DNA of 64,000 nt from a virus. The notes beneath the pieces are model-generated. The model did not search any database. It saw nothing but the letters and a program-made list of their open reading frames with translations, and had not been told where the DNA came from. Below are positions 11,098 to 40,715 of this stretch, in pieces (position 1 is the first letter of the stretch; every line of letters starts with the position of its first letter). The stretch lies in the UHGV virus genome UHGV-0021337. One strand, 5' to 3'. Made by a program: the position numbers and the translations under genes.

Positions 11098-11103
11098 GTA
11101 AGT

Positions 11104-11847: not shown

Positions 11848-12908
11848 AGATTGTTTTTTATAGCGATGTACATTTTAGTACTTACTCAAGTATTTTTCGC
11901 AAACGTGGAAAAACATATTCTGCAAGACTTGAGAGTTGCATAAACAGCGTCGGATGGGCAGAAGACTACGCAGAGCGGATAGGAGCCGATTTAATTGTAA
12001 TAGGTGGAGACTTTTTTGATAAAAGTGATTTAAGCGCCGAAGAATTAACTGCGTTGAAAGAGGTCTATTTCAGTCAAAAAATAAACCACACTGTACTTGT
12101 AGGAAATCATGAGATGAAAACTAGAAACAGGTCTCTTACAAGCGCACATCTATTTCAAACCCTACACGGTACGTTTGATGTTTTTGATACTCCTGTTGTC
12201 TGGAAAGGTCTTGAAATTAACAAAAATTTTAACTATGTTTTTCTACCTTATATAAATGAAGAAGAAAGGCACGCATTTGTTGAGTATCTTCCAAACAATG
12301 ATTTACCTTCAATTGTATTCAGTCACAACGACATTGCAGGAATCCAACTAGGTCAGTTTACCTCAAAAGAAGGATTTGAAATAAAAGATGTTGAACAATC
12401 TTCTGCATTATTCATAAACGGACATCTTCATAACGGAACTTTCCTAAATCAAAAGCATACTATTTGTAACGTAGGTAATCTAACAGGAAAAGATTTCGGA
12501 GAAAACGGATTTCAGTTTAAGCATCAACTTGCAGTAATTGACACTGATACAATGAGCGTTGAGTTAGTAGATAATCCTTATGCAGCATATTTCTATAAAT
12601 TTGAATTTCATAAAAGTATATCCGAAAGTGAAATACAGAATATTTGTAGTTCTCTTGCTCCTATTTCGTGTATTACATGTAAAGTAGAAATCGACGATGT
12701 ACAAGTAGTAAAATCCGCACTAGACAATTTACCTTGGGTAGTGGACTATCGCCTGATTGCGACTAAAGCACAAGGCGAGCAACCCGAAAGTGACAATGTT
12801 GTTGACACATTTGCATCAATTGACCACATAGCAGCATTCAAGACTTATATTAAGTCACAAATCGGTAACTCTGAGTTATTAGAAAAGGAGTTACAAGAAT
12901 TAGTATGA
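11838..12908 (+). CDS. sbcD: SbcD/Mre11-like nuclease
   Basis: Calcineurin-like motifs FYSDVHF, VIGGDFFD, LVGNHE; paired with the downstream SbcC homologue. Confidence 0.75.
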   Translation: MGLKIVFYSDVHFSTYSSIFRKRGKTYSARLESCINSVGWAEDYAERIGADLIVIGGDFFDKSDLSAEELTALKEVYFSQKINHTVLVGNHEMKTRNRSLTSAHLFQTLHGTFDVFDTPVVWKGLEINKNFNYVFLPYINEEERHAFVEYLPNNDLPSIVFSHNDIAGIQLGQFTSKEGFEIKDVEQSSALFINGHLHNGTFLNQKHTICNVGNLTGKDFGENGFQFKHQLAVIDTDTMSVELVDNPYAAYFYKFEFHKSISESEIQNICSSLAPISCITCKVEIDDVQVVKSALDNLPWVVDYRLIATKAQGEQPESDNVVDTFASIDHIAAFKTYIKSQIGNSELLEKELQELV

Positions 12909-14773
12909 AATTACAATTTACACGTATACAGATACACAATTTTATGTCATTTAGTGACGCCGACATTAGCTTATCCGACCGAGGCTACGTTTTAGTCCGA
13001 GGTGAAAACAATAACCCTGTAGATAATGCACAAAGCAACGGTGCAGGAAAAACAACGATATTTCACGCATTATCTTGGTGTTTAACGGGACTAACGCTTT
13101 CTGGGATTAAAAGCAATGTAGCAAACATAAAGCTCGACGATGGATGCTGGGTAAGAGTTGAATTCAGGAATGAAGGACATATATATAGTATTCTTAGGTC
13201 AAAAGATTCATCCGAGTATAAGACTGATTTGAAAATTTTTATCGATAACGAAGATAAATCAGGCAAGGGAATACGTGATTCCGAAAAACTACTTGAACAA
13301 TACTTGCCAGACTTAACTTATCAGCTTCTAGGGTCAGTCATTCTTCTTGGTCAAGGGCTACCTCAACGTTTTACAAACAACACACCTTCGGGTCGTAAGG
13401 AAGTTTTAGAGAAACTATCTAAATCTGACTTTATGATTGAAGACTTAAAGTCAAAATTAACATCACGTAAATCCACATTACAGAATGATTTACGACAAGT
13501 TGAAGATGCTATACTAACAAAAACTGCAACTATAACCACAAAAGAACAATTCAAGCAACAGTTAGAAGCTTCAAATGCTACACTTGATTCTTCCGTAATA
13601 GCGGCAGAAGTAGAAGCAGTACAAAAAAGCCAAAAAGAATTGTCTGAAAAGATTTCTTATTATGACGAACAATTTTCAGAATGTGGTGTTAAAGACCAAG
13701 AGCTGCTTAATCAAAAAGATGCTGCGTATTCTGATTACTTGTCTGAGTTGCTAGGGCTACAACATCGTTATGACCCTCAAATTGACGCTGCTCAAAAAGA
13801 ATTTCAATCCGCTCAGATTTTATACGCTACACAGAGTGCAGAGTTAACACGACTCAAATCAATAAAAGATGTTTGCCCTACTTGTGGTCAACATATACCT
13901 GGTGTTAGCCGTCCTGACACTTCCGAGCTAGAAGTTATTGTTAACAATCTGTCGCGAGAAGTTCAACAGATTTCTGACAAATTATCTACGCTAAAAGACG
14001 CTCTCAATAAAGAAAAATCAAGCATTACCTCTAGTTATGATACCAAAGCTCGTGAGTTAACTATGTTACGCTCTCAGCTCCAGTTTAAGTGCACTGACAT
14101 TAGAGGAACTCGAGAATTACTTCAATCTCAGTACTCCATTGGAGCAACACGTTTAACATCCTTGCAAGGACAACTAGCATCTTTGAACGAAACAAAGATT
14201 AAAAATGAAACAACAATACGCACTATAGCTCAAGAAATTGAAGATCTACATTCTGAAATCTTGTATAACAATACGAAAAAAGAAGAGTTAACAACACGAT
14301 TGAGTTTAGTTACAAAAATGTTAACTATTGCAACAAGAGATTTCCGAGGATTCCTACTAACTAATGTTATTGACTACATTGACTCTTGTGCAAAAAACTA
14401 TTGTCAACAGATATTTGAAACTGATAAACTTAATTTTTACCTCGATAGTAACAATTTAGACATAACGTATGACGGTAAACTATATGAAGGATTATCAACA
14501 GGTGAAAAACAAAAAGTCGACGTAATAATACAACTATCGTTGCGTGATATGCTCTGCAAGTATATGAATTTCAATTGCAACATTCTTGCTCTTGATGAGG
14601 TGTTTGATGGCCTTGATAGCGTGGGGTGCGAAAGAATTGTTAATTTAATAAACAACATAACTGACATTGAGAGCATCTTTATCATAACGCATCATTGTAA
14701 CGATATTGAGTTAAGTTATGATGATGAAATCGTTGTTGTTAAAAATAAAGATGGAATAAGTGAGATTAAATAG
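12905..14773 (+). CDS. sbcC: SbcC/Rad50-like ATPase
   Basis: Walker A NGAGKTT; CxxC zinc-hook VCPTCGQ inside a coiled coil; signature LSTGEKQKV; Walker B ILALDEVFDGLD. Confidence 0.8.
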   Translation: MKLQFTRIQIHNFMSFSDADISLSDRGYVLVRGENNNPVDNAQSNGAGKTTIFHALSWCLTGLTLSGIKSNVANIKLDDGCWVRVEFRNEGHIYSILRSKDSSEYKTDLKIFIDNEDKSGKGIRDSEKLLEQYLPDLTYQLLGSVILLGQGLPQRFTNNTPSGRKEVLEKLSKSDFMIEDLKSKLTSRKSTLQNDLRQVEDAILTKTATITTKEQFKQQLEASNATLDSSVIAAEVEAVQKSQKELSEKISYYDEQFSECGVKDQELLNQKDAAYSDYLSELLGLQHRYDPQIDAAQKEFQSAQILYATQSAELTRLKSIKDVCPTCGQHIPGVSRPDTSELEVIVNNLSREVQQISDKLSTLKDALNKEKSSITSSYDTKARELTMLRSQLQFKCTDIRGTRELLQSQYSIGATRLTSLQGQLASLNETKIKNETTIRTIAQEIEDLHSEILYNNTKKEELTTRLSLVTKMLTIATRDFRGFLLTNVIDYIDSCAKNYCQQIFETDKLNFYLDSNNLDITYDGKLYEGLSTGEKQKVDVIIQLSLRDMLCKYMNFNCNILALDEVFDGLDSVGCERIVNLINNITDIESIFIITHHCNDIELSYDDEIVVVKNKDGISEIK

Positions 14774-15624
14774 TGCAAACATTTTTTAAGCCAAAAGACA
14801 AACGTTGGGTTGACTTAGCAATTTGGTGCGACCAAAATGCTTACAAGACAGATTGTGACAATAATACTTTATATCAATATCTATATCTTTTGTTTTGGAT
14901 GTTGTCACATAAGTGGAACTACTTCCACAAAGAATCTGACTATGACGAATTTTGTCTTCTTGGTGCTCAAACAGTTTATATGCGATTGAAAAATCCTAAA
15001 CAATTTGACGGAAGTGGTAAGCTACAACCAGTTAAGTCAGTATTGAATTACATAAAGAATGTTATATACCCCATATCTGTAACATTTCAAATGCAATCCT
15101 TTGCCCAAGGATTTACAATTGAAGATGATTACAATGCGGCATTACGAGCTCAACATATGCTTAATGAAAAAGCTCGTCACTATAGCGATGACACAATGCG
15201 CATGGAATTTGAGCATTGTTTATCTTGTATAACAAATACGATAAAAACATTAGTAAAAGAACTTCCATATCGTAATGACAAACTAACAACTCACAATATT
15301 TATATAAGTTGTTTACTTACAATACTAAACTATTTGAAACTCGACAAAATTAAACTTGCCCGTCTTAATTATCGAGATAATAAAGGTATGAACAACGAAT
15401 GGGTAATAAATGAGTTGTATAGAGACACACGATATCAGAAAGCACTCTTATTCCATCTACCAGACTCTATGAGCAACTATGTGTCTGTTATTGTTAATAG
15501 AGCACTTGCTCTTATGTCAGCTGATTTGATTGGTGTTATTGGAAGTTATCAACCCTCTGATGCTATTGTAAAGGCAATCATTGCTTCTCCGTTAGAGGAT
15601 TATGTGGAGCCAAATAATGACTAA
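14773..15624 (+). CDS. hypothetical protein
   Basis: 283 aa ORF with ATGA coupling. Confidence 0.35.
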   Translation: MQTFFKPKDKRWVDLAIWCDQNAYKTDCDNNTLYQYLYLLFWMLSHKWNYFHKESDYDEFCLLGAQTVYMRLKNPKQFDGSGKLQPVKSVLNYIKNVIYPISVTFQMQSFAQGFTIEDDYNAALRAQHMLNEKARHYSDDTMRMEFEHCLSCITNTIKTLVKELPYRNDKLTTHNIYISCLLTILNYLKLDKIKLARLNYRDNKGMNNEWVINELYRDTRYQKALLFHLPDSMSNYVSVIVNRALALMSADLIGVIGSYQPSDAIVKAIIASPLEDYVEPNND

Positions 15625-16012
15625 CAACCAGATTAAAAACTTGAAAGATACCGACTGTTATAGTTTAATCTTATTTTGTTTATATAAGCTTTTAGATGTA
15701 CCAGAATATTCTTCTTTAAGCGAACTAGTATATGTTTTAGATAAACAAAATTTACTCAATTTATGTGAGTATTTTGGGGGGCAAACAATTACAATACCCA
15801 CTATTGAAGAATTAGAGACATTAACATATTCATTACTTCTTTATCAATACGTGAATGTCGAAAAGAAAGACTACACAGAAGCTCTTGAACTTATAGGACA
15901 CGAATCAAAAGATTTGCGAAGAGTAAAAAAATTCTACACAAAACTTTGCGAAGTTCTTGAAAAGTATAGTTTTCTGCCTCGAGATCCTGCACATAAATCG
16001 GTGGCTCTATGA
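15602..16012 (+). CDS. hypothetical protein (an alternative start at ATG 15617 has better RBS spacing)
   Basis: 136 aa ORF. Confidence 0.35.
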   Translation: MWSQIMTNNQIKNLKDTDCYSLILFCLYKLLDVPEYSSLSELVYVLDKQNLLNLCEYFGGQTITIPTIEELETLTYSLLLYQYVNVEKKDYTEALELIGHESKDLRRVKKFYTKLCEVLEKYSFLPRDPAHKSVAL

Positions 16013-16206
16013 CACAGGCAGGCATATACAAAATGCTCGAAGAGCTTAGCGAGCATAAGAGAGACAGACGATACTTGACTCAAATATTCATTCAAGACCG
16101 ACTTAATAAATCTATAGAAACTTACTATGACGATTTAACGCGTTCATATAATTCATTAAAACATAAAAATGAATTACACGTTTTAAGAAAATTAAACAAG
16201 GCATAA
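16009..16206 (+). CDS. hypothetical small protein
   Basis: 65 aa ORF coupled to its neighbours. Confidence 0.3.
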   Translation: MTQAGIYKMLEELSEHKRDRRYLTQIFIQDRLNKSIETYYDDLTRSYNSLKHKNELHVLRKLNKA

Positions 16207-16211
16207 ATATC

Positions 16212-16538
16212 ATGACAAATGTTGTTGAAGATTTGAATACAATTACATCGATACCTCGAGCAAATATTTCAAAACTATTTCAAAGAGTGGAGTGGCTTAT
16301 TTGCAATGCCATATATGAGGCATATATATCGGGAAATGACCTCGCGGAAATAAACTTAGGATTCGGCAAAATTTCTGTGCTGATAACAGGAAATGAGCTT
16401 AAGTATAGATTCCAGCCCTCAAGAAAAACAGAAGCTATGTTACGTGAGATATTTGAAAAGGGTTATGACCCTATCGCAGCGGAAGCAGAAAAAGCTGTCG
16501 TGGGCACAACTTTGAAAGCATATAAGGATTTATTGTGA
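16212..16538 (+). CDS. possible HU/TF1-like DNA-binding protein
   Basis: About 100 aa; AEINLGFGKISVL resembles the HU beta-arm motif (xLxGFGxF). Confidence 0.3.
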   Translation: MTNVVEDLNTITSIPRANISKLFQRVEWLICNAIYEAYISGNDLAEINLGFGKISVLITGNELKYRFQPSRKTEAMLREIFEKGYDPIAAEAEKAVVGTTLKAYKDLL

Positions 16539-29456: not shown

Positions 29457-31955
29457 ATGGCAGGATCATTGTGGGGCGAGAGTTTCGAGATTCCTGAAAC
29501 TCCAAAAGTTGTTAAAAAAGTACTTGAGAAAGTAAATCATCCGAAAGATACAAAAGTTTCAGTTACAAAGACTATTAAATCTAACAAAGTTTCCGACAGA
29601 GATAAGTTGGTTTTAATTCGTGAAAATGTCAACAGAATTTTAGGCAAGTATGGTGATGATACTCAGTTAATAAAAACAAGAGAAGAGTTAACAAAGTACA
29701 TTGACTTTGCAATAAATTGTAGTGAGATAGCAATCGATACAGAAACAGATAATAGTTTGGACCCGATAACGTGTAAGTTAATGGGTGCGTGTATCTATTC
29801 TCCTGGACTTAAAAATGTTTATATTCCTGTAAATCACGTAGATATAAATACTCGTGAACGATTTGATTGGCAGCTTACAGAGGCAGATATCAAAGAAGAA
29901 TTTGACCGTTTAACAGCTGCCAAAACAAAAGTCATAACGCACCATGGAAAGTTCGATTATGAAGTTCTAAAAATGACTACAGGTTATGTAATGTCTGTTT
30001 ATTGGGATACTCTTGTTGGTGAAAAAATACTTGATGAAAACAAGCATGAATACGGCTTGAAACATCTTTATAGAGATAAATTTGACCCCGAACAAGAAAA
30101 GTATGACATAGAAGAATTGTTTGAAGGTGTCGAGTATGCAATAGTGGAGCCTGAGTTGTTTGCGTTATATGCAGCAACAGATGCTTACATGACTTACAAG
30201 TTATATAAATGGCAATTAGAACAATTTGACATTCCTGACCATAGCAGAATTAAGAATTTATTTCTTAGCATTGAAATGCCTGTCTTACAAGTTTCCGCAG
30301 AAATGGAACTTGCAGGTATATGCTTAGATCAAGAATATGCAAAGAGGTTAAGTGCTAAGTACGCAAAGAAGCTTGAAGATATTGACGAAAAAACAGAAAC
30401 GGAAGTTGCTAAATACGAAGACATCATATCTCAGTGGCGATTAACTACAGACGCAAACGAACATCCTATCAAGAACGGTAAGATGCAGAGGTCAAAAAGT
30501 GAACAATTAAAGTTTCCTGTAAACCTTGATAGTCCAACACAGCTCGCTATCTTATTGTATGATGTTCTTAAATGTGGTGTTGTAAATAAGAAAAAGCCCA
30601 GAGGAACTGGAGAAGAAGAACTTACAGCTATTTATGCAAAGTACAAGATAGAACTTTGTAACATAATACTAGAGAGAAGAGGTCTTCTTAAGTTGATTAC
30701 AACATATATAGATAAACTTCCACAGTGTGTAAATCCAGCAGACGGAAAACTCCACGCTAAGTTTAATCAGCTCGGCGCGGGCACAGGCAGGTTTAGTTCT
30801 AGTGACCCAAATCTTCAAAACATTCCGTCTCACGAAAAATCAATAAGAATGTTATTCGAAGCAAGTCCAGGGTGTTGCCTTTGTGGTGCGGATTTCTCGG
30901 CCCAAGAACCTCGTCTTTTAACACAGTTCAGCCAGGATTCTAAGATGCTTAACGCATACAAAGAAGGAAAAGACTTGTATGCAATAATAGCTCAACAAGC
31001 CTTTCATAATGGATACTGGGATAACATGGAGCATTACGAAGATGGTTCTCCTAATCCAGAAGGCAAGAAAAGACGTGGTATCGCAAAAACTTTGCTCTTA
31101 GGAATAATGTACGGAAGAGGTTGTGCATCTATTGCAGACCAAATAGGGTGTAGTATTCCCGAAGCTCAAAAAATCATTGATACATTCTTCGAAAGTTTTC
31201 CTAAAGTAAGGGATTGGGTGACTAAAACAGAACAAGATGCTAAAAAACTAGGTTATGTTGAAGACTATTGGGGACGTAGAAGACGACTTCCTGATATTAT
31301 GAAGCCTAAGTATACAATAACTGCTAAGGGTGAAGACACATCTATTTCAAAAGATTTCAACCCGTTGTTAGGTGCATTAGGTCTCGTTAAAAATACACAG
31401 GGCACATTGACTGAAAAATGGCAGAATGCATTGTCAAAAATGAAAGGTCGTAAAGAGTACGAGCAGATAAAATTGAACGCTGCAAAAGAAGGTGTGACGA
31501 TAATCGATAATGGTGCATTTATAGCACAAGCAGAAAGGCAGTGTGTAAATGCACGTATTCAAGGTTCTGCTGCAACGTTAACTAAACTAGCAATGATTGA
31601 AGTATTCCACGATGAAGAACTTAGAACTCTTGGATTTAAACTTTTACTTGCAGTTCACGACGAGTTGATTGGAGAATGCCCGATTGAAAACGTGAAAAAA
31701 GCAGCTGAACGTTTGTCTTATGTTATGGTTAATGCTGGAGTTAAGAATAACGTCGATACACCTATGAAGTGTGATGCAGAAATAGAGGACCATTGGTATT
31801 TCAACGAATATAAAACATTGATTAGGAAGGAATACGCAAAATATATTAGTGCAGGAGATAGCAAAGAAGTTGCGTGGAGCAAACTTTGTGAGGAGCATTG
31901 TGAATCAACTCCTGAGCAGTTAAAAATAATTCTTGAAAGCGAGGAGGTAGCGTGA
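29457..31955 (+). CDS. polA: DNA polymerase I, family A, with 3'-5' exonuclease domain
   Basis: Motif A GADFSAQEPRLL, motif B RRGIAKTLLLGIMYG, motif C LLAVHDEL; N-terminal exonuclease signatures. Confidence 0.85.
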   Translation: MAGSLWGESFEIPETPKVVKKVLEKVNHPKDTKVSVTKTIKSNKVSDRDKLVLIRENVNRILGKYGDDTQLIKTREELTKYIDFAINCSEIAIDTETDNSLDPITCKLMGACIYSPGLKNVYIPVNHVDINTRERFDWQLTEADIKEEFDRLTAAKTKVITHHGKFDYEVLKMTTGYVMSVYWDTLVGEKILDENKHEYGLKHLYRDKFDPEQEKYDIEELFEGVEYAIVEPELFALYAATDAYMTYKLYKWQLEQFDIPDHSRIKNLFLSIEMPVLQVSAEMELAGICLDQEYAKRLSAKYAKKLEDIDEKTETEVAKYEDIISQWRLTTDANEHPIKNGKMQRSKSEQLKFPVNLDSPTQLAILLYDVLKCGVVNKKKPRGTGEEELTAIYAKYKIELCNIILERRGLLKLITTYIDKLPQCVNPADGKLHAKFNQLGAGTGRFSSSDPNLQNIPSHEKSIRMLFEASPGCCLCGADFSAQEPRLLTQFSQDSKMLNAYKEGKDLYAIIAQQAFHNGYWDNMEHYEDGSPNPEGKKRRGIAKTLLLGIMYGRGCASIADQIGCSIPEAQKIIDTFFESFPKVRDWVTKTEQDAKKLGYVEDYWGRRRRLPDIMKPKYTITAKGEDTSISKDFNPLLGALGLVKNTQGTLTEKWQNALSKMKGRKEYEQIKLNAAKEGVTIIDNGAFIAQAERQCVNARIQGSAATLTKLAMIEVFHDEELRTLGFKLLLAVHDELIGECPIENVKKAAERLSYVMVNAGVKNNVDTPMKCDAEIEDHWYFNEYKTLIRKEYAKYISAGDSKEVAWSKLCEEHCESTPEQLKIILESEEVA

Positions 31956-32302: not shown

Positions 32303-33022
32303 ATGAAGAAATTATTAAACGAATACAAAATTTTATTACGAAATGTACCTAGTCTAATTGTTGGCTTGTTTATTGTTGCAGTTGTTAGCTGTAATATACT
32401 TGCAAATAAAACAATTGTAAGTGTTGGAGATTGGTTCGCACTAGATGGAGGAATTGTTGTTAGTTGGCTTATATTCTTGTGTATGGATATGGTAACTAAA
32501 CGATTCGGACCAAAAGCAGCAACGCGTTTAACTTTAGTTGCAGCAGGTGTTAATTTACTTGTGTGTGGTTTATTCTACATTGTTAGCGTTATACCTTCTT
32601 CAGCTGATGACTATACAGCACTAAATGGAATTTTAGGCGGTACTTGGTTTATTCTGATGGATAGTACAATAGCATTTATTGTCTCAGGAATAATCAACAA
32701 TTTTGTAAACGCTGGTATAGGTAAAGCGTTCAGGAAAAATCCAGACGGAAAACTTGCATATGTTTCAAGAACTTATGTATCTACGTTTATTGGACAATTT
32801 ATTGACAACTTAATTTTTGCAGTTTTAACCTTTATGGTATTCAGCCCTATTTTCTGGGACGGATTTAGTTGGACATTCTTACAGTGTGTAACGTGTTCTT
32901 TAACAGGAGCAATTGCTGAATTATTGATGGAAATCATCTTCTCGCCTCTTGGATATAAAATTTGCAATAAATGGAAAGCAGAAGGCGTTGGCAATGAATA
33001 TCTTGAATTGGTAAAAGCCTAG
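32303..33022 (+). CDS. yhhQ: YhhQ/COG1738 (DUF165) queuosine-precursor (preQ0/preQ1) transporter
   Basis: 239 aa polytopic membrane protein; motifs CMDMVTKRFG and QFIDNLIFAVLTF align with E. coli YhhQ. Confidence 0.65.
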   Translation: MKKLLNEYKILLRNVPSLIVGLFIVAVVSCNILANKTIVSVGDWFALDGGIVVSWLIFLCMDMVTKRFGPKAATRLTLVAAGVNLLVCGLFYIVSVIPSSADDYTALNGILGGTWFILMDSTIAFIVSGIINNFVNAGIGKAFRKNPDGKLAYVSRTYVSTFIGQFIDNLIFAVLTFMVFSPIFWDGFSWTFLQCVTCSLTGAIAELLMEIIFSPLGYKICNKWKAEGVGNEYLELVKA

Positions 33023-33070: not shown

Positions 33071-33199
33071 ATTTATTCTTTGATTACCTTTATAATAAAT
33101 GTATAAGTTAGGAGAAAGCTAACTTGAACATTGAAGAAATTAAAAAATCTAATCAAACAACCTGAAAAGGTGAATTTATGAGTAGAGTTGGAGGTAGAT

Positions 33200-33460
33200 A
33201 TGAACTGGAAAAAAGAATTTATCAAATTATTAGAATCGAGAGCCTTTGCGACTAATTCAGAAATCGATGATTACGCTGACGAACACAATTTGCCAGTAGC
33301 CGACGTTTGGCAGTGTTTCTCGGAATATATGGAAGATTGTTTAATTAAACAGTCAATCGGAACACCTTGCGAAGGTTGCAAATACGTTGTTCAAACAAAA
33401 GGCTCGATACCTTGTTATGAGTGTTGTCGAAATAAGGCTGATTTTTACAAAAAGATATAA
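33200..33460 (+). CDS. hypothetical small Cys-containing protein
   Basis: ATG 33200 lies behind GGAGG; the track start 33188 is TTG. Confidence 0.3.
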   Translation: MNWKKEFIKLLESRAFATNSEIDDYADEHNLPVADVWQCFSEYMEDCLIKQSIGTPCEGCKYVVQTKGSIPCYECCRNKADFYKKI

Positions 33461-33489
33461 CAGAAGACACGTTTCATTAGGGGGTAATT

Positions 33490-33651
33490 ATGCGTAAAGA
33501 ACACGACGGGAAGATTTACTTCCCACATTATGAAGAAATTTTGCTCGAGGATGCTTTGACCGCGATGGTTAAAATTATGCAGGAAACTGGACATTTGTAT
33601 TACGTTGAATGGAACGGAAAGTTCTATTACAGCGACGAGGTAAAAATATGA
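33490..33651 (+). CDS. hypothetical small protein (53 aa)
   Basis: RBS GGGGGT 4 nt upstream; ATGA-coupled to the next ORF; not in the supplied track (under 60 aa). Confidence 0.25.
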   Translation: MRKEHDGKIYFPHYEEILLEDALTAMVKIMQETGHLYYVEWNGKFYYSDEVKI

Positions 33652-33851
33652 GATTCAACGGACAAAATATGATATACACTGCAGACGACGAATTTCCCAA
33701 CTGTAGCGTGTGTGAAAAACAAGACTTCTGTTATTTATGCATGGAGTGCGGTCCAAGCTTTGCGTGGCAACACTACGAAAGATCTGAAGACAATGCTGAG
33801 CTGAATCGTCTGTACAAGGAGCTTGAGAGGTACAAGAAACAATATGATTAA
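33648..33851 (+). CDS. small zinc-finger protein
   Basis: CSVCEK ... CMECG; the coupled start at 33648 is preferred over the track start 33609. Confidence 0.3.
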   Translation: MRFNGQNMIYTADDEFPNCSVCEKQDFCYLCMECGPSFAWQHYERSEDNAELNRLYKELERYKKQYD

Positions 33852-34029
33852 ATACTACACCGAGCGTGAGCTTGATTACAACGAAATTGAAACTCCATCC
33901 TCATATCCAAAAGAAGTAGTCCTAGACAAAATCAAAAATCTAGATAAACGAGATATAAAGTTTAAGCCTGTACTCGATCCTCAGTGTGTTATAACTACAA
34001 CTTGGACTATAAGTAATGACGATAACTAA
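33844..34029 (+). CDS. hypothetical small protein
   Basis: ATGA coupling; the track start 33823 lies inside the upstream gene. Confidence 0.3.
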   Translation: MIKYYTERELDYNEIETPSSYPKEVVLDKIKNLDKRDIKFKPVLDPQCVITTTWTISNDDN

Positions 34030-34081
34030 TTGATTGTTTATATAAATTATATTATAATAAGCATATAAGAGAGGTGTATAT

Positions 34082-34306
34082 ATGAATAACGAGAAACACG
34101 AAGTAACAAAAGAAGAAGTTGGAGAACAGATCTGGGAACTTTTCAAAGGTGACTCTAAAAAACATAGAACGCATAACTATGAAAAAACATATGATGGAAT
34201 TAGTCAATGTTTCACGTTACGTAATAGTAAACGATATTTAATAACACAGAATTCAAAAGATAACAACGATATAAAAGTCGAAAGATATATAAAAAATCAT
34301 CACTAA
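34082..34306 (+). CDS. hypothetical small protein
   Basis: 74 aa ORF with RBS AGAGAGGTG. Confidence 0.3.
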   Translation: MNNEKHEVTKEEVGEQIWELFKGDSKKHRTHNYEKTYDGISQCFTLRNSKRYLITQNSKDNNDIKVERYIKNHH

Positions 34307-34320
34307 GGTTTAAGTTAATT

Positions 34321-34524
34321 ATGAACTGTCCTAGATATATAAAAGACAAAATTCTTTTACGAGCAAAATACGCTATGAAATTTATGAAATTAGATTGCGA
34401 TATATGCAATTGGATGCAGGCTAATAATATAGATAGTGAATACTCTCTTCCCGGATATGTAGAAAGTCTGTGTGGTGGTTACAGTGCAGCTGAAGAAACA
34501 CTTCAAGACATTGAAAATTCATAA
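34321..34524 (+). CDS. hypothetical small Cys-containing protein
   Basis: 67 aa ORF. Confidence 0.3.
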   Translation: MNCPRYIKDKILLRAKYAMKFMKLDCDICNWMQANNIDSEYSLPGYVESLCGGYSAAEETLQDIENS

Positions 34525-34579
34525 AATTCGTGTTAATTAGACATAAGTTATTGTATAACAAATACAAACAGGAGGTATT

Positions 34580-35530
34580 ATGCCATATTATTTTTCTGGA
34601 GCATATAATCAGGCCTTGAAAATACGGTTAAATGTTGACCAACTATTCTCAGTGTATCATGAGAAAAAATTGATTGAAAAAACAATCTTATATAAAAGAG
34701 AACATCCTGAATATACCGCAAAAATTTTCTTAGACAGTGGAGCTTTCACGCATTTCCAGAATATGAAGAAAAAGGGAATCACGCTTACTGACAACGACAT
34801 AAAGGACTACACAGATAAATATCTTTCTTTCTTAAATGAATGGGGCGAAGACTTGGAGTGCTTTGTTGGCGTCGATAGTGTACCAAATCCAGAACACGTT
34901 GACCCAACGTTTGTTCATAAAACTTGGGCAAATTATTTGTATATGTGGGAAAGGTTAAAACCGAGTATTCGTCATAAATTGATTCCTGTTTTCCACTTTG
35001 GGGAAGATTTCAATGAATTGAAGAAGTGGCTTGAATATAGACATCCAGATGGAAGTAAAGTTGAGTATCTTGGTCTTGCAATTTCGTTGGAAGGAAATCG
35101 AAAAGTAAGAATTGCTTGGGGACAAGAAGCCGAAAGAATAATCAAAGCATCTTCTAATCCAAATGTTAAGACTCACGCGTTTGGTGTTGGGGTTAAGAGC
35201 GTTATGGAAAATATAAACGTAACTTCGACGGATGCCACGAGTTGGTTGAAGCGTGCAGCATATGGAATGATTTCGGTAGACGATAAGACTGTATATATAA
35301 GTGACTTGCAAGAACAGAAGTCCGACGGCAGACATCTTAAAGATAAGTCACTAGCTTATCAAGAAGAAGTATTTAAGAAAATAAAAGAAAAAGGCTTTAC
35401 GCTTGAGCAGTTAGCTACAGACAATTACGCGAGAGCGGAATTTAACATTTTGGATACGTTAGAATGGTATAATAAATTAGAAGCATCAAAACGTATCGAA
35501 AAGGGCGCAAAGGTTGATTTAGGTTGGTAA
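34580..35530 (+). CDS. dpdA: DpdA-like DNA-guanine transglycosylase (TGT superfamily)
   Basis: TGT substrate-pocket motif KIFLDSGAFTHFQ (compare LDSGGFQ); HAFGVGV; TSTDATSWLKRAAYG matches the catalytic Asp region FDCVxPTRxARxG; no Zn-binding Cys cluster, as in DpdA. Confidence 0.55.
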   Translation: MPYYFSGAYNQALKIRLNVDQLFSVYHEKKLIEKTILYKREHPEYTAKIFLDSGAFTHFQNMKKKGITLTDNDIKDYTDKYLSFLNEWGEDLECFVGVDSVPNPEHVDPTFVHKTWANYLYMWERLKPSIRHKLIPVFHFGEDFNELKKWLEYRHPDGSKVEYLGLAISLEGNRKVRIAWGQEAERIIKASSNPNVKTHAFGVGVKSVMENINVTSTDATSWLKRAAYGMISVDDKTVYISDLQEQKSDGRHLKDKSLAYQEEVFKKIKEKGFTLEQLATDNYARAEFNILDTLEWYNKLEASKRIEKGAKVDLGW

Positions 35531-37428
35531 TCTCAGACGAGATGAAACAAGATGTTGTTGAGTTCTATAAAACAAACTCAACAACAATTACTTGTGAACA
35601 ATTTCATATAACTTGGGACAGGCTTAAAAAGATACTGGCTGAATATGATGTAGCTCCACACGATGCAAAAATTAATAGAGAACTGACATCGTTATACAGA
35701 TTCGGAGTTACTAATGCAGGAAAATCTGTAGAGTTACAGGAAAAAGCAAAACAAACAACAGCGTCAAGATATGGTAGTTCAAATTACAGGAATCACGACA
35801 AAGCTCGTCAGACCCGTATAAACAAAGATGGCTCATTAGAAGCATCATATAGAAAAGCTCAGAAAAGACAAGAAGAAACGAACTTGGCTAAGTATGGAGT
35901 TAAAAGTTATTTTCAAACTGAATTATTTCAAGAACAGTCTAAGGATACTTGCTTAGAACGTTACGGCAAAGAGTTCTATCGTCAAACTCAAGAATATCAG
36001 GACCGCGTTAAAGAAACATCTTTACAAAAATATGGAGTAGAACACTATACTCAATCTGACCAGTATAAAACAAAAGTAAGAGATACTTGCCAAGAAAGAT
36101 ACGGCAACGATTCGTGGTTTGGCTCGGAAGCTGGTAAGAATGCTATCAAAGACAGTTGTTTACAGAGGTATGGTGTTTCTAACGCTATGCAGTCGTATGA
36201 AGTGATAACGCGAGCAAAAGAAAAGCTTGTTCAGAAATATGGTGTTGACAACGTTATGAAATCTTCAGATATCAGAAGTAAGCAAGCACAGTCGAGTCGT
36301 TGTTCTAATTTTGAGCAAGAAGTTCAGCATTGGTTGTCAAATAGAAACGTTGCTTTTACTACTCACTATGTTATTAAACAAGGAGGTTTGATTCACGAGT
36401 TTGATATTGCTTTATACGAAGGTAATCAGCTCGTTTGTCTAGTAGATTGTGACGGGACTTACTATCATGGATACAACGACGATATAAATGGTAGATCTGT
36501 AAACCCATACATAGATGAATATAGAATGCTGCTTGTTCCTAAAGATGTTTTATTTCTTGTGTTACTTCCAGACACTTGGCAAGAGCAGCTTGAAGAATAC
36601 TTTAATAACAAACAAAGTTACGAGCAAGTCATATTCACCTGGTGTAAATCTATAGACTTTCCATATCCTAACATAGACAATGTTGAGGCTTCCTATAAGT
36701 CACTGGTAAAGGCAGATGTGAGTAAATTTTCGATGAACGCTCGATATGGAATGCGAGTTATCGACGCTTTTCATAAATCTATCTGGAAAGCAAATAGAAA
36801 AGGTTTCTTGAGCCCTTATGCTGCTTGGCGTGATGAAGAATTGCTACGCAGATGTATCAATAATCGTATAATTTATAAAGGTACTAACTTAGACCCTTCC
36901 AAGGTTCTATACGGTTTTAGTGCTGCAAAGATTGCTCCTAAAGTGTCGATATTTAATCCTTATCTGGCTAAGTATTTGATAAATAAGTACTTGAACGAAT
37001 TTACAACTGTTTTTGACCCTTGCTCTGGATATAGCGGCAGACTTTTAGGCGCAACATCATTGGGTAAACATTATGTAGGACAAGATATAAATGCTACAAC
37101 AGTTGAAGAATGTTTACAAATACGTGATAAGCTCAATCTCGACGCTGAATTATCTGTTGTTGATTCTTTGAGTACTACAGGAAGTTATGAGGCTTTATTT
37201 ACCTGTCCTCCTTATAGTGACAAAGAAAACTGGAACCAAGAAATTTTGAATCTAACATGCGATGAATGGATTACTCGATTTATAGAAAACTATAAATGTA
37301 AAAGATATTTATTCATTGTAGACAAAACAGAAAAGTATAAAGATTATATTGTTGAAGAAATAGAGAATAAATCACATTTTAGTGAGAATATTGAATATGT
37401 TATATTGATAAATAGAGGTAATATATGA
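35524..37428 (+). CDS. multidomain protein: about seven 23-aa [KR]YG repeats, a PD-(D/E)xK (Vsr/DUF559-like) nuclease-like domain, and a Dam-like (D12-class) methyltransferase with CPPY in place of DPPY
   Basis: Repeats aa 70-250 (AKYGV..., ERYGK..., QKYGV..., ERYGN..., QRYGV..., QKYGV...); EFDIAL...LVDCDGTYYH; motif I VFDPCSGYSGRLLG and motif IV FTCPPY; overlaps the dpdA stop by 4 nt. Confidence 0.5.
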   Translation: MVISDEMKQDVVEFYKTNSTTITCEQFHITWDRLKKILAEYDVAPHDAKINRELTSLYRFGVTNAGKSVELQEKAKQTTASRYGSSNYRNHDKARQTRINKDGSLEASYRKAQKRQEETNLAKYGVKSYFQTELFQEQSKDTCLERYGKEFYRQTQEYQDRVKETSLQKYGVEHYTQSDQYKTKVRDTCQERYGNDSWFGSEAGKNAIKDSCLQRYGVSNAMQSYEVITRAKEKLVQKYGVDNVMKSSDIRSKQAQSSRCSNFEQEVQHWLSNRNVAFTTHYVIKQGGLIHEFDIALYEGNQLVCLVDCDGTYYHGYNDDINGRSVNPYIDEYRMLLVPKDVLFLVLLPDTWQEQLEEYFNNKQSYEQVIFTWCKSIDFPYPNIDNVEASYKSLVKADVSKFSMNARYGMRVIDAFHKSIWKANRKGFLSPYAAWRDEELLRRCINNRIIYKGTNLDPSKVLYGFSAAKIAPKVSIFNPYLAKYLINKYLNEFTTVFDPCSGYSGRLLGATSLGKHYVGQDINATTVEECLQIRDKLNLDAELSVVDSLSTTGSYEALFTCPPYSDKENWNQEILNLTCDEWITRFIENYKCKRYLFIVDKTEKYKDYIVEEIENKSHFSENIEYVILINRGNI

Positions 37429-37721
37429 AAAGTTATTATCATTATTATGATGTATGTTTTACAAAAGATGCTGCTGTTTTTGATAGAGAATTTACAACTG
37501 ATGACTGTGAAGTAATTGAAGGTTTAGATGATGTTACATCAAATGAATTACAACTAATCATTAAAGTGATTGAATACGTTAGACCCGATATTGAAAGAAT
37601 ACGTGTATTATATAATGTATATGAACATGACGATGATGCTGAAGATGATATATGTTTAACATGCGATAGCATATTAGATGTTGTTAGAGATAATGAAGGT
37701 AAATTTGTTTTAAATTGCTGA
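37425..37721 (+). CDS. small highly acidic protein (possible DNA mimic)
   Basis: 98 aa, Asp/Glu-rich (HDDDAEDDI). Confidence 0.35.
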   Translation: MKSYYHYYDVCFTKDAAVFDREFTTDDCEVIEGLDDVTSNELQLIIKVIEYVRPDIERIRVLYNVYEHDDDAEDDICLTCDSILDVVRDNEGKFVLNC

Positions 37722-37745
37722 TATAATGAATTTATTACATTTTAG

Positions 37746-37774
37746 TTGATAAATATTTGTTTTTATGTTACAAT
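37746..37774 (+). promoter_or_regulatory. sigma-A-like promoter
   Basis: TTGATA, 17-nt spacer, TACAAT, 20 nt upstream of ATG 37795. Confidence 0.4.
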
Positions 37775-37794
37775 AAAATAAAAAGAGGTTTATT

Positions 37795-38196
37795 ATGTTA
37801 ACTAAAAATAATTGGCAAAACGCTTTTGATATGTTAAATGATTATGCTAATATTGATGATAGATTTTACGGTGGTGTATGTTCTTATAAATTTTTAAGTT
37901 TTGAAGGTGTTAAAAAGTTAGTTGAAAATAAGTATTTAAATTTAACTGAGAGACAAAACTATTCACCTATGGTTAAAAATTGGATTAAATTTATAGAGAC
38001 TAATAATTTACAAGACAAAATATTTTTTCATGGTTATATTGTAGAGAAAGGTAGATTTGATAGACGTATTTCTATAGAAGGTATACAAGCTAACGCCAAT
38101 ATTAAATTTTCAGAGGATGAATTAAAATCCATTGTAGATTTTTGTTATGGCGCAGATACACTTAGAATCTCTCCATTATATGTTTGGTGGGATTAA
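37795..38196 (+). CDS. hypothetical protein
   Basis: 133 aa ORF with RBS AAGAGG. Confidence 0.35.
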   Translation: MLTKNNWQNAFDMLNDYANIDDRFYGGVCSYKFLSFEGVKKLVENKYLNLTERQNYSPMVKNWIKFIETNNLQDKIFFHGYIVEKGRFDRRISIEGIQANANIKFSEDELKSIVDFCYGADTLRISPLYVWWD

Positions 38197-38287
38197 ATTA
38201 AACTATAATCATTATGTCTAATAACGATTGTAATGAATCTGATGACTTCTAGATAGCTGCTAAATTAAAAATATAGGAGATATAGTT

Positions 38288-38455
38288 ATGCCTAAATTAA
38301 ATATAAATGAAGGTTTTGATGAATTATATAATCATAAGTGTGCAGATGTTTTACGTGCTGAATTAGATGGAAATTATGATGATAATGTGCATGAAGATAA
38401 TTTATTACAAGATGTTTTATTTCATTTTGAAAACAGAGTAGATAAAAATAAATAA
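38288..38455 (+). CDS. hypothetical small acidic protein (55 aa)
   Basis: RBS GGAGATA upstream; not in the supplied track (under 60 aa). Confidence 0.3.
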   Translation: MPKLNINEGFDELYNHKCADVLRAELDGNYDDNVHEDNLLQDVLFHFENRVDKNK

Positions 38456-38538
38456 AACTTCGATGTTGTGTTATAATATAAGAAAGTAAGAAAATAAACT
38501 GAGAGTAAATATTTTGGAGACTTAAATAGGAGCAATTT

Positions 38539-38688
38539 ATGAGATATAGTAATTTTCACCGTCATTCCATGTACAGCAATTTGCCCGCCGGGATTATAAT
38601 GATTTGTTTAGGGATGTGTGAGCTCTTTCAAGGGCTATCATCGGAAGTACGCAAAAGAACAATAAGTCAGTATCACGTATTTAGTTGA
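38539..38688 (+). CDS. hypothetical small hydrophobic protein (49 aa)
   Basis: RBS TAGGAG; local GC content higher than surroundings. Confidence 0.2.
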   Translation: MRYSNFHRHSMYSNLPAGIIMICLGMCELFQGLSSEVRKRTISQYHVFS

Positions 38689-38713
38689 TTCTTCCTCGAT
38701 AATCCCTTATAAT
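38685..38713 (+). promoter_or_regulatory. strong sigma-A-like promoter
   Basis: TTGATT, 17-nt spacer, TATAAT, upstream of ATG 38741. Confidence 0.45.
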
Positions 38714-38740
38714 AAATGTAATAAATAAGAGGTAGATAGT

Positions 38741-39064
38741 ATGAAATTTTCAGATATGGATGCAAGACAACAAAAAGCTTTTCGCAACATTAAATACGCA
38801 GCAGATGATTTGTTAGGTGGTTTAGAAAACACGTTACTCGATTATGATGAACAAGATCAAGAATATATCGACGCCGAAAAATTACTCTCGAATCACTCCG
38901 AACTTGTTAATCAACTTTATAAGAAGGCTACTACAGAACTTTACGGGCCAGGTTTTTGTGGTTTTGGAAAAGAGGCTCAGATGATTATTCGGGATATAAA
39001 TTTCTGCGGCAAAGTGTGGTTGATGGAACGTTGTGAAAAACGAATAACAAAAGAAGGCTATTGA
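38741..39064 (+). CDS. hypothetical protein
   Basis: 107 aa ORF with RBS AAGAGG. Confidence 0.35.
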   Translation: MKFSDMDARQQKAFRNIKYAADDLLGGLENTLLDYDEQDQEYIDAEKLLSNHSELVNQLYKKATTELYGPGFCGFGKEAQMIIRDINFCGKVWLMERCEKRITKEGY

Positions 39065-39109: not shown

Positions 39110-39832
39110 ATGGCAACAGCATTAGTTACAGGAACAAGCTCGGGAGTGGGTAAAGCAACAGCTCTTAAACTTCTAGCTATGGGAATAGATGTTATAGGTC
39201 TTGATTGGAAAGATAGTACAATTCATAGACCTCATTATTTTCACTTCAAATGTGATGTAAGCAAGTATGAAGAACTTCCTTCGCTTGACAGTTTAGGAGG
39301 CATTGAGTACATTGTTAACAATGCAGGAATAGTAACACCTAAAGCAGACGCTATCGCAGTTAATCAGATTGGATATATAAATGTATTGCAAAAATATGCG
39401 GATAACAATCCGAAGTTAAAAAGCATTGTAATTATTGGTTCATCTGCCTCGGTCAAGGGCTACGACAATCGAGAATATTGCACTTCGCAAGGTGCAAGAG
39501 ATGCATTAACCAAGTGGGCCGCTAACAACTATGGTAACGACCCTAGACACGTTTTAGTCAACGAACTTCGTCTCGATGGTATTGTAGCAGCAGACCCGGA
39601 AAAGGGTATTGAAGGTACTACTTTGGAACCTGAGCTTTATGCAGCAGATGGATTGATGGACCAAATAGCTAATCTGAGCATTTTAAAAAGGTTGGCTACT
39701 GTCGAAGAGATTGCAGAATGGATTTATTTTATTCTTGTAGTTAACACAATTGTAACTGGGCAGATAATAGATGTTGACGGAGAACTCATGGGAGCTTTCA
39801 AATTTGTTCCTTACAAAGGGTGGAATGACTAG
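39110..39832 (+). CDS. short-chain dehydrogenase/reductase (SDR) family protein
   Basis: Rossmann TGTSSGVGKA, NNAG motif; active-site region reads SS...YCTSQ (YxxxQ instead of YxxxK). Confidence 0.6.
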   Translation: MATALVTGTSSGVGKATALKLLAMGIDVIGLDWKDSTIHRPHYFHFKCDVSKYEELPSLDSLGGIEYIVNNAGIVTPKADAIAVNQIGYINVLQKYADNNPKLKSIVIIGSSASVKGYDNREYCTSQGARDALTKWAANNYGNDPRHVLVNELRLDGIVAADPEKGIEGTTLEPELYAADGLMDQIANLSILKRLATVEEIAEWIYFILVVNTIVTGQIIDVDGELMGAFKFVPYKGWND

Positions 39833-39833
39833 T

Positions 39834-40715
39834 ATGAAGATAATGTGCTTAACACCTTGTCTGATGTTAGATAATACCAGAGCAATAAACGCTAAGTCAA
39901 TACAAAATAACATAGATGTTCTTAAACTCGATGAATATGTAATCTATGACCAGATGTTTGCACCTAGCGATTTTAACTCGAAATGTACATATATAGGTCA
40001 CGCAGATAAACGAATGGGCTGGGCAGTACCAAGAAATGCTTTACTTAAGTATTTTTATGATTCTGACTTTGACTATGCGTTTTTTATTGATGCAAATTCT
40101 GTTCCGTCTAAACCTACGCTAAATGATTTACTGAGCATAATAAGAAGTCTTAGAGCAGGTGAGTTATCTTTCTGCGACGCTATTTTTAGCACATTAGGTA
40201 TGTGGGTAAGTCAAGAGCGTATAATGTGCAAATCCTTACCTGACCACCTCGAAAATGTTCATCTAGTACCCGCTCGTTGTGATAAAAGTTACAACTGGAT
40301 GCACGGATTATTTGTAAAGAATTTCAAGAAGTATTATGGCCAGGAATTCTATATGGATGAAAGATGTCATGTATTAGAAGGAACTCCAGAAGATGTATTC
40401 TTTGCTCGTCTATTAAGGAAGTATGCAAATTGTTGGGTTGCTCCTACAGTGGTAATCAACAAACCTTCTTCTAATGCTTCTTGTACAATGGCAAATGGTA
40501 AAGGTACTTATGATTATCCGCCTGTATTGTTTGATAAAGAAGATGAATACATTTCTGAACTCTCTCAGAAAAACGGATATCATCACTGTAATAGAAGTGT
40601 ACGACCTAGCGAAGTTGTTATACCTCGCGTTTCGGAGTATAAAGATTTAGTTACTCCGTATAAATCAAGACAAAAGAAAGTACAAGAAACTTCAAGAAAA
40701 CAAGTACTTTTTTAA
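39834..40715 (+). CDS. hypothetical protein, possibly glycosyltransferase-like
   Basis: Start MKIMCLTP directly after the SDR stop; FFIDANS is DXD-like; track start 39771 overlaps the SDR gene. Confidence 0.35.
   Translation: MKIMCLTPCLMLDNTRAINAKSIQNNIDVLKLDEYVIYDQMFAPSDFNSKCTYIGHADKRMGWAVPRNALLKYFYDSDFDYAFFIDANSVPSKPTLNDLLSIIRSLRAGELSFCDAIFSTLGMWVSQERIMCKSLPDHLENVHLVPARCDKSYNWMHGLFVKNFKKYYGQEFYMDERCHVLEGTPEDVFFARLLRKYANCWVAPTVVINKPSSNASCTMANGKGTYDYPPVLFDKEDEYISELSQKNGYHHCNRSVRPSEVVIPRVSEYKDLVTPYKSRQKKVQETSRKQVLF

Follow-up and report, generated by a model that had tools for sequence, protein, structure and literature searches.

What is a gene doing that begins inside the last codons of dpdA, and does it belong to the pathway of its neighbour? 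The question is raised by a 64,000-nucleotide (nt) stretch of the virus genome UHGV-0021337 (here the window), in which an open reading frame (ORF) at 35524..37428 on the plus strand encodes a protein of 634 amino acids (aa), as described in an earlier interpretation that used only the letters of the DNA (the sequence-only reading). The upstream neighbour at 34580..35530 (+) had been called dpdA, encoding a homologue of the 7-deazaguanine DNA transglycosylase, and this is borne out by a match to PHROG 887 (E value 2.5e-38) and by 32% identity to DpdA of Streptococcus phage Dp-1; the product resembles the 9g-type enzymes. The two genes had been thought to share 4 nt, but the alignment shows an overlap of 7 nt (TTGGTAA), with a TTG start codon inside the 3′ end of dpdA. 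This TTG is kept in relatives L001 and L008, where the ATG at 35542 of the window is ACG or ACA, and TTG is therefore the likely start. The protein comprises a helix-turn-helix (HTH), DUF7487 repeats, a nuclease that appears to be Vsr-like and of the EDxHD type, a helical linker domain, and a methyltransferase domain with the motif CPPY. We conclude with considerable confidence that it is a mobile, dispensable element of the homing endonuclease type, which lies beside dpdA by position and not as a member of that pathway. Probably, it is a free-standing Vsr-like (EDxHD/Hef-type) homing endonuclease gene to which a C-terminal site-directed methyltransferase has been added.

The gene is absent from an otherwise similar genome. 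IMG/VR contig 3300045988_170194 (L088; 129 kb) encodes DpdA, Vut_1, and adh_short proteins that are 86%, 95%, and 78% identical, respectively, to those of the window, and its dpdA stop codon is followed by the next resident gene, with both flanks kept. Comparison by blastn with L088, L001, L008, and L005 delimits the segment that L088 lacks to 35532..38679 (+), 3,148 nt in the window as against 28 nt in L088. It holds the endonuclease-methyltransferase gene, two small genes (orf98 and orf133), and about 480 nt of further sequence. The stop codon of dpdA is its left border, and homology with the empty-site relative resumes at the right border, 38680..38740 (+), where a promoter-like TTGA...TATAAT element and the AAGAGGTA ribosome-binding site (RBS) of a resident 107-aa ORF are aligned in the window, L088, L001, and L008.

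Parts of this segment also occur in an unrelated context. Window positions 36771-38404, spanning the methyltransferase half of the gene with orf98 and orf133, have 79.5% nt identity to a cassette in L005 that lies directly after gp23, whereas the two proteins share just 24 to 30% identity in their N-terminal halves. In L001, the gene is 89% identical at the nt level and the DNA downstream is unrelated. Homologues of orf133 are found only with such cassettes (L005, L006, L007, and L010) and are absent from other related gp23 loci. Family members P0020 and P0051 directly follow a T4-type major capsid gene, and among 127 flanking genes of about 65 nonredundant loci, Gp23 (16) and NrdD (4) are the most frequent, with terminase, portal, RNA polymerase beta, and sheath genes next in number. 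Occupancy is sporadic, with a family gene at about 7 of 56 related gp23 loci, and several contigs carry at least two family copies. Beside gp23, no second clean empty site was found; the closest available relative has 72% identity in the major capsid protein, and the pattern there is one of sporadic distribution only. These neighborhoods and the sporadic pattern resemble those of the free-standing homing endonuclease genes of T4 and LIMEstone phages (PMC3296691).

The sequence-only reading had tied the gene to its neighbour by co-expression and had considered the exocyclic aminomethyl of preQ1 in DNA (dPreQ1) as a methyl acceptor. In its full form, the idea is that the gene belongs to the dpdA modification module and that its C-terminal domain modifies this group, or another 7-deazaguanine derivative inserted by DpdA, with the Cys of CPPY adapting the pocket. 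The arrangement invites the idea: the gene follows dpdA directly with the 7-nt overlap, the order PolA, Vut_1, DpdA, gene, adh_short is kept in L001-L004 and L008-L009 (55 to 92% identity), the nearest folds of the methyltransferase include guanine-N2 methyltransferases (Trm11, RsmD, and TGS1), and methylated dPreQ1 (mdPreQ1) occurs in phage DNA (PMC10516641). We nonetheless consider a part in this chemistry extremely improbable. Sister genome L088 has dpdA and yhhQ without the gene, and searches by phmmer, HMM, and jackhmmer found no DpdA within 10 kb at any of the 78 other IMG/VR family loci, so that neither the co-occurrence nor the retention expected of a dpdA-linked gene set is observed. 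Members that adjoin capsid (gp23), nrdD, terminase, and portal genes keep the Cys motif all the same. The enzyme linked by experiment to dPreQ1 methylation, DpdM, is likewise encoded near dpdA in phages and performs the very reaction proposed, but it is an unrelated DUF3109 metalloprotein with a CxxxCxxCC metal-binding motif and a different, non-Rossmann fold (PMC10516641); the window protein has a Rossmann fold, with no DUF3109 match and no CxxxCxxCC motif. Nor would such a pathway have any use for a homing-type DNA-binding array and a nuclease. The sequence-only reading had itself named two outcomes as telling against the coupling, and both are observed: annotated homing endonucleases contain the repeats as a module, and a close relative that retains the modification genes lacks the gene.

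The window nevertheless bears on where a 7-deazaguanine might come from. At 32303-33022 it encodes YhhQ/Vut_1, of a preQ0/preQ1-type transporter family, together with DpdA, and a scan of 20 window ORFs found none of the preQ0/preQ1 synthesis genes (FolE, QueD, QueE, QueC, and QueF), a lack that counts against the dPreQ1 idea too. Salvage of a 7-deazaguanine precursor from the host is suggested by this, although synthesis genes could also lie outside the window. The interval between yhhQ and dpdA (33188-34524) holds a run of small ORFs of 67 to 90 aa with no family matches, two of which (33188-33460 and 33609-33851) are Cys-rich with CxxC pairs; relatives have other small ORFs, or a DUF7487 gene, in this interval.

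What, then, is the protein built from? The three-part fusion described before is upheld, with each part present well beyond chance, and full-length three-part homologues have 43 to 92% identity at 99% coverage. At the N terminus, residues 5 to 40 (35536..35643, +) form, in an AlphaFold2 (AF2) model, an HTH-like bundle of three helices (5-17, 20-27, and 31-40) with a per-residue model confidence (pLDDT) of about 90; in paralogues HTH_28, HTH_23, or Sigma70_r4 occupies this place. There follow, at residues ~48 to 257 (35665..36294, +), helical YG repeats with a period of exactly 23 aa, as the sequence-only reading had found, with [YF]G anchors at residues 60, 83, 124, 147, 170, 193, 216, and 239. 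It had counted about seven repeats; one degenerate unit probably fills the 41-aa interval from the second anchor to the third, for a total of 8 to 9. Nor are the repeats without a name, since they match Pfam DUF7487 (PF24308) in three stretches (E 3.5e-45; 155 bits, where the cut-off is 27), and the PHROGs that they match, 12131 and 3339, carry the label "homing endonuclease". AF2 models each repeat (pLDDT 86) as a helix of about 15 residues plus a turn. We presume that the repeats are a sequence-reading DNA-binding array; the literature searched makes no mention of DUF7487. The same YG repeats, together with a nuclease of the same type, characterize the DUF7487 "homing endonucleases" of PHROGs 3339 and 12131, such as Dickeya phage PP35 orf022, Klebsiella phage Muenster gp277, and the Lak paralogues. 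Those of isolated phages are multicopy (3 to 20 places per genome) and lie between conserved structural genes; they differ in having another C-terminal domain in place of the helical and methyltransferase parts.

The middle of the protein, residues ~262 to 375 (36307..36648, +), is a PD-(D/E)xK nuclease that appears Vsr-like, as had been suspected from the motifs HEFD (291-294) and DCDGTYYH (308-315). Across 38 homologues, there is no variation at E264, D294, D310, G311, H315, and R334 and almost none at D320 and D331, D331 being invariant in a smaller alignment subset. The AF2 topology is alpha-beta-beta-beta-alpha-beta (helix 262-273; strands 277-286, 289-299, and 302-309; helix 328-337; strand 343-347), with D294 and D310 on the second and third strands, as the core of the PD-(D/E)xK superfamily requires. 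Foldseek returns weak matches (E 0.009 to 1), mostly to PD-(D/E)xK proteins (the restriction-like endonuclease domain of R2, AF1548, XisH, Bax1, McrC, Hjc, and TnsA). When 51 family members were scanned singly, Vsr was matched in 7 (best E 2e-3), MTES_1575 in 6 (best E 3e-4), and PvuRts1I-like_N in 5, all below threshold. The catalytic domain of I-Bth0305I (3r3p) is the second-best PDB match of a nuclease-only profile (E 0.38), and in that alignment E264, D294, D310, and H315 fall on E170, D196, N208, and H213, the EDxHD pattern. The depositors of Klebsiella phage Muenster recorded its DUF7487 homologue as a Vsr match (HHpred 1CW0, 99.7%). The label "Vsr-like" would thus reflect several independent weak lines, not one significant score.

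Hef-type phage homing endonucleases have been assigned to the Vsr-like family of I-Bth0305I, whose members are phage-borne, free-standing or intron-borne, and located beside or within conserved genes such as recA, nrd, and structural genes (PMC3239194). The window protein resembles I-Bth0305I (3R3P) and Hef in having a modular N-terminal DNA-binding part followed by a putatively Vsr-like nuclease, and its E...D...x...H...D residues can be aligned with theirs, although the similarity to 3R3P is not significant on its own (E 0.38). It differs in using 23-aa DUF7487 repeats plus an HTH where they have NUMOD2/HTH, and in adding a C terminus of ~260 aa composed of the helical and methyltransferase domains. 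No homing endonuclease with such a C-terminal module is reported in the literature searched.

The first part of this C terminus is a conserved helical domain, residues 376 to 470 (36649..36933, +), with the alignment consensus FPYP, ARYG, SPYxAW, NRxIYKG, and LDPSKVL. It is all-helical in the AF2 model with pLDDT above 90, it always precedes the methyltransferase fold, and it is possibly a substrate-binding part of the methyltransferase akin to a target recognition domain (TRD). The second part, residues 471 to 634 (36934..37425, +), is modelled as a compact class I Rossmann methyltransferase (pLDDT 86; predicted TM score 0.81) with the motif order X-I-II-III-IV and strands beta5-7 at its C-terminal end. 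A methyltransferase with motif I and a CPPY motif IV had been recognized before, but as D12/Dam-like, an assignment that we do not retain: the window protein has no PF02086 match at E ≤ 1, members have matches at E ≤ 0.1 to 59 families, of which the 25 commonest do not include PF02086, and just ~50 residues, with no TRD among them, separate motif I from motif IV, an order unlike that of alpha-class D12/Dam enzymes.

By structure, the best Foldseek match in the PDB is Trm11 (6zxw, E 5.5e-8), and METTL5, RsmD, RlmKL, and TGS1 are matched too, so that the nearest solved structures are amino-methyltransferases with (D/N/S)PP(Y/F/W). By sequence, Pfam N6_N4_Mtase (PF01555) is matched over motifs X-I-II in 32 of 51 members (best E 5e-7). 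Some paralogues reach its threshold, and the window protein misses it, scoring 13.6 to 17.2 bits against a cut-off of 26.7 and matching only profile positions 160-221 (X-I-II). Other sequence links, to TIGR01177 (Trm11 family) and PADLOC MTase_II, are weak, and a profile of the whole core gives marginal matches only against PDB sequences. What the family has in common with the amino-methyltransferases (Trm11, which makes m2G10, RsmD, RlmKL, TGS1, METTL5, and PF01555) is the class I Rossmann fold with the motif IV loop after beta4, and the X-I-II stretch aligns with the N4-cytosine methyltransferase 8s9m as well as with PF01555. It is set apart by its dedicated helical domain in front, by a motif IV with Cys first and P, S, or T second, and by a motif order (X-I-II-III-IV-...) permuted relative to the beta class (IV...TRD...X-I-II-III).

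Motif I, VFDPCSGYSGRLLG, is the glycine-rich loop predicted to bind S-adenosylmethionine (SAM) and occupies residues 496 to 509 (37009..37050, +); the acidic residue of motif II is D521; and motif IV, T-C-P-P-Y, occupies residues 560 to 564 (37201..37215, +), with C561 as its second residue and a family consensus of T-C-[PST]-P-Y. In 64 nonidentical locus copies, D498, P499, G502, G505, R506, G509, Y517, G519, D521, E529, T560, P563, Y564, and E568 are invariant, and C561 is present in all but one (63/64), as it is in every sequence of a separate alignment (51/51). Among the 150 best cluster representatives (50% identity), motif IV could be located in 128, and its first residue is Cys in nearly all. 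Fold and motifs I and II thus agree with the class I amino-methyltransferases, whereas the first residue of motif IV is not the D, N, or S of their (D/N/S)PP(Y/F/W). A Cys that is family-wide is a selected feature rather than decay. A rare Ser variant, TSPPY, occurs in L045 and P0204 and parallels the SPPY of SPPY/SPPF N4-cytosine enzymes; because such natural variants exist, we suggest from the alignments that the Cys may fill the role of that Ser. No CPPY methyltransferase is reported in the literature searched.

Two other roles for the Cys seem improbable. An obligatory three-Cys metal site (C561, C579, and C592) does not agree with members that keep C561 and have Ala for C579 and C592, nor with two others in which C561 is Ser. 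A nucleophile of the C5-methyltransferase type is unlikely, given the lack of PCQ/ENV motifs, the amino-methyltransferase fold neighbours, and the Ser variants.

Is the domain perhaps catalytically dead, serving the endonuclease as an additional DNA-recognition, base-flipping, or clamp module? The sequence-only reading had allowed for an inactive recognition module, and the replacement of the canonical D/N/S of motif IV by Cys, as well as the failure of any DNA methyltransferase family to reach its curated threshold for the window protein, could be taken in this sense. Yet the SAM-contacting residues (FDPxSGxSGR, D521, E529, P563, and Y564) are invariant in the 64 copies, an invariant Cys is unlike a decayed site, and the module is conserved in proteins that have no nuclease to serve. 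Ratios of nonsynonymous to synonymous substitution (dN/dS) of 0.1 to 0.27 also speak against an inactive module, and the values in every domain, including those of the nuclease-less lineage of L008, lie at 0.05 to 0.27 and show purifying selection. An inactive domain is thus very unlikely.

The constant unit of the family is in fact the helical plus methyltransferase (HEL+MT) module, which corresponds to PHROG 12517 ("unknown function"). A search with residues 376 to 634 yields 1,897 clusters (50% identity) at E ≤ 1e-3 and 266 at E ≤ 1e-30; the module is almost always C-terminal, in proteins of 500 to 800 aa. Among the 150 best cluster representatives, the Vsr-like nuclease is present in 90 and absent from 60, and the N termini are interchangeable (DUF7487, NUMOD3, HTH_28/HTH_23/Sigma70_r4, or zinc fingers). 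The pieces also occur apart: Lak megaphages encode the repeats plus nuclease (in up to 12 to 15 places per genome) separately from HEL+MT; L077 and L079 have a nuclease protein and a methyltransferase protein as adjacent separate genes; and P0004, the protein of L008, which is 81% identical to that of the window and encoded at the same locus, has lost exactly the nuclease domain in frame. L008 encodes additional DUF7487 proteins, one of 539 aa upstream of dpdA and one of 550 aa with a partial nuclease match (5396-7015 and 14639-16291), and L004 has, two genes past its first copy, a second protein of DUF7487, helical, and methyltransferase parts (682 aa, 10680-12728) without the nuclease.

Farther afield, a Foldseek search of a viral structure library aligns the nuclease-helical-methyltransferase core with proteins of Pithovirus (LCPAC102 A0A4D5XFF9 and A0A481Z6B6), Satyrvirus, and salmon gill poxvirus over 358 to 394 of its 399 residues (E 1e-11 to 2e-9; TM score ~0.5), with only 11 to 16% sequence identity. 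They bear automatic annotations such as "N4-cytosine methyltransferase" and "Type I R-M methyltransferase".

Given the constancy of HEL+MT, the module might be an orphan site-directed methyltransferase of DNA or RNA, acting in anti-restriction or regulation, with the Vsr-like domain as an accessory mismatch-repair nickase and not a homing enzyme. HEL+MT is always there and strongly conserved while the nuclease is missing from 40% of clusters, the nuclease-less L008 allele is still under purifying selection, and Vsr is among the nearest sequence families of the nuclease. Partnership of a methyltransferase with Vsr is textbook knowledge from dcm-vsr, in which Vsr corrects deamination for Dcm. 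That precedent does not carry over, however: the window enzyme is of the amino type, with no PCQ/ENV motifs and a (D/N/S)PPY-type loop by fold, and the T:G mismatch rationale that serves a C5-cytosine methyltransferase is therefore inapplicable. Moreover, DUF7487 plus Vsr-like proteins without any methyltransferase are common, free-standing, and multicopy in T4-like, Ackermannviridae, and Lak phages, where they are annotated as homing endonucleases, and the active-site pattern appears to fit the EDxHD homing family. We regard an orphan methyltransferase with a repair nickase as decidedly unlikely.

A different use of the same parts would be a single-chain restriction-modification-like weapon, analogous to Type IIG/IIL enzymes, that degrades unmethylated host or competitor DNA genome-wide, methylates the genome of its own phage, and is kept for competition and not by homing. 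The order nuclease-helical-methyltransferase is that of MmeI-type enzymes, with weak MmeI_Mtase matches in 3 of 51 members, weak matches to PADLOC Type II methyltransferase and mad2, separate and adjacent genes in L077 and L079 that recall R and M, and purifying selection in all domains. Within one chain, Type IIG/IIL (MmeI) and Type IIC enzymes similarly link a PD-(D/E)xK nuclease through a helical connector to an amino-methyltransferase, and their logic is to cut unmodified DNA and modify their own. They have a C-terminal TRD, in contrast to the N-terminal homing-type array and Vsr-like nuclease of the window protein, whose methyltransferase is also much smaller (~165 aa) and has Cys in motif IV, and whose gene is mobile. 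DUF7487, NUMOD3, and HTH are homing modules for long, rare sites and not TRDs for short, frequent ones; a sporadic, multicopy distribution beside conserved essential genes is the outcome of homing; and the cassette is 79% identical in nt sequence across unrelated contexts. Such a weapon is therefore unlikely, in our view.

We favor the reading as a homing endonuclease with an added methyltransferase, and a plausible course of events is as follows. The HTH and the 8 to 9 DUF7487 repeats would bind a long DNA target, a role suggested by their exchange for NUMOD3, HTH, and zinc-finger modules and by the "homing endonuclease" annotation of homologues. The Vsr-like nuclease would cut gene-less alleles of related coinfecting phages near the 3′ end of dpdA, and recombinational repair would copy the gene and its passengers orf98 and orf133 into the intergenic spacer between dpdA and orf107. 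Insertion of a free-standing gene into a spacer leaves the target in the neighbouring gene intact, hence a need for self-immunity. The HEL and Rossmann domains would act as a SAM-dependent amino-methyltransferase, with Cys in the role of the SPPY Ser, that methylates the enzyme's own recognition site and so leaves the carrier genome uncut. Nuclease-less copies with the binding array and methyltransferase would be immunity-only alleles, and the position beside dpdA would be the homing site of the window copy, with no role in 7-deazaguanine chemistry.

Self-protection by site-directed methylation is the more tentative part of this scheme, and we would give it perhaps somewhat less than an even standing. 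Four observations agree with it: the domains are fused, the split pairs recall R and M genes, the array and the methyltransferase are retained where the nuclease is lost, and the catalytic motifs are invariant. The sequence-only reading had mentioned, as another possibility, a nuclease of the homing or selfish sort that carries a protective methylase; comparative evidence upholds the mobile nuclease fusion, and the protective role, like DNA as the substrate and the identity of the target base, we infer. Neither component is of a new kind, one being a Vsr-like homing endonuclease and the other a Rossmann amino-methyltransferase, and the repeats are already in Pfam and PHROGs; new relative to the literature searched are the fusion, the family-wide Cys in motif IV, and the HEL+MT module.

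Several observations weigh against the scheme and should be set beside it. The nearest solved structures of the methyltransferase are RNA methyltransferases, and a DNA substrate is only a deduction. The nuclease matches to Vsr and I-Bth0305I are each below significance (E 2e-3 to 0.4), and neither a Vsr structure nor 3r3p is among the top 50 Foldseek matches of the nuclease. With 40% of clusters lacking the nuclease, the methyltransferase module has an independent life, and its primary function may be something other than self-immunity, for example, anti-restriction. The single empty site, in L088, could reflect deletion rather than a site never invaded. Finally, the place behind dpdA, with the start codon inside the dpdA stop, is kept down to 55% identity (L004), and this kept position could indicate functional coupling.

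Two passengers accompany the gene. orf98 (37425..37721, +) overlaps the gene by ATGA, is thus translationally coupled to it, is common to the L005 cassette, and has no Pfam or PHROG match. orf133 (37795..38196, +) likewise follows family genes where these adjoin gp23 (L005, L006, L007, and L010), matches no Pfam, PHROG, or NCBIfam family, and belongs to a small family of 8 clusters among 5.8 billion proteins; being restricted to the cassettes, it is a passenger and not a general partner. Because of the structural matches to the Trm11-Trm112 and METTL5-TRMT112 complexes, we considered whether orf98 or orf133 might encode a Trm112-like activator. As a general partner this was rejected, in view of the 8 clusters and lack of family matches of orf133 and of L001, which replaces both genes by an unrelated 105-aa ORF. 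The last ~480 nt of the inserted segment (38196-38680) are without an ORF of at least 60 aa and have short ORFs after RBS-like sequences (e.g., ATGCCTAAATTAAAT...) and TATAAT-like elements of their own.

The orf98 homologue in L005 (GCA_963651305.1, CAVJOT010000022.1, 9986-10282) has an in-frame TAG where the window has CAA (Gln), and reading TAG as sense lengthens many ORFs of L005 and L006 (e.g., from 435 to 657 codons). The phages of the gp23 context thus probably use TAG-to-Gln recoding and the window phage the standard code, in which case the cassette has passed between phages whose genetic codes differ.

The surroundings of the locus are a large-phage replication module, all on the plus strand, with genes for an SNF2 helicase, DnaB, primase, DNA polymerase A, dUTPase, RecA, a PD-(D/E)xK nuclease, and a clamp loader. 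A nucleotide search with window positions 34000-39000 found zero matches in 50,697 phage records, and the window phage is therefore absent from the deposited isolates. DNA polymerase A is a single 832-aa ORF in the window (29457-31955), two ORFs in L088 (3214-4824 and 4900-5979), and at least three pieces in L004 (139-4920), with HNH_3 and NUMOD3-type genes between; such splitting is a further sign that homing endonucleases move heavily among these phages. In many related contigs (L130, L133, L135, L137, and L141-L143), two to four pieces, 1 to 3 kb apart, likewise make up the T4-type major capsid gene, a pattern suggesting that gp23 is interrupted by introns, inteins, or inserted endonuclease genes. 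Downstream of the locus, the window encodes adh_short, a dehydrogenase of the SDR family (39110-39832), and an ORF with a weak match to a glycosyltransferase PHROG (39771-40715), and L004 has CofD-like and NTP_transf_3 genes there as well (13631-16058). These genes may form a nucleotide-sugar or DNA-hypermodification module beside dpdA.

The family is large and common in metagenomic large-phage contigs, including those of Lak megaphages, and has no assigned function in the sources searched; annotation as a component of the Dpd pathway merely for abutting dpdA is unwarranted. Tentatively, and with less expectation than for the self-protection on which it builds, we suggest that these proteins might be the first recognized family of self-immunizing homing endonucleases, in which one programmable repeat array guides nuclease and methyltransferase to the same long target. 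They would be hybrids of homing endonuclease and restriction-modification system, with carriers protected by methylation, naive relatives cut, and nuclease-less copies conferring immunity only; the invariant Cys would mark a previously undescribed form of catalytic site among amino-methyltransferases, whose acceptor may be an atom other than N6 of adenine or N4 of cytosine. The 23-aa repeat array may, in addition, constitute a modular DNA-reading code. Free-standing homing endonucleases face the problem of self-cleavage, for which the known solution is target-site polymorphism, and a built-in methyltransferase directed to the same target would, if the proposal is right, be a different solution. 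Homing endonucleases and restriction-modification systems have long been suspected of shared ancestry, and the family would then be a living intermediate between the two.

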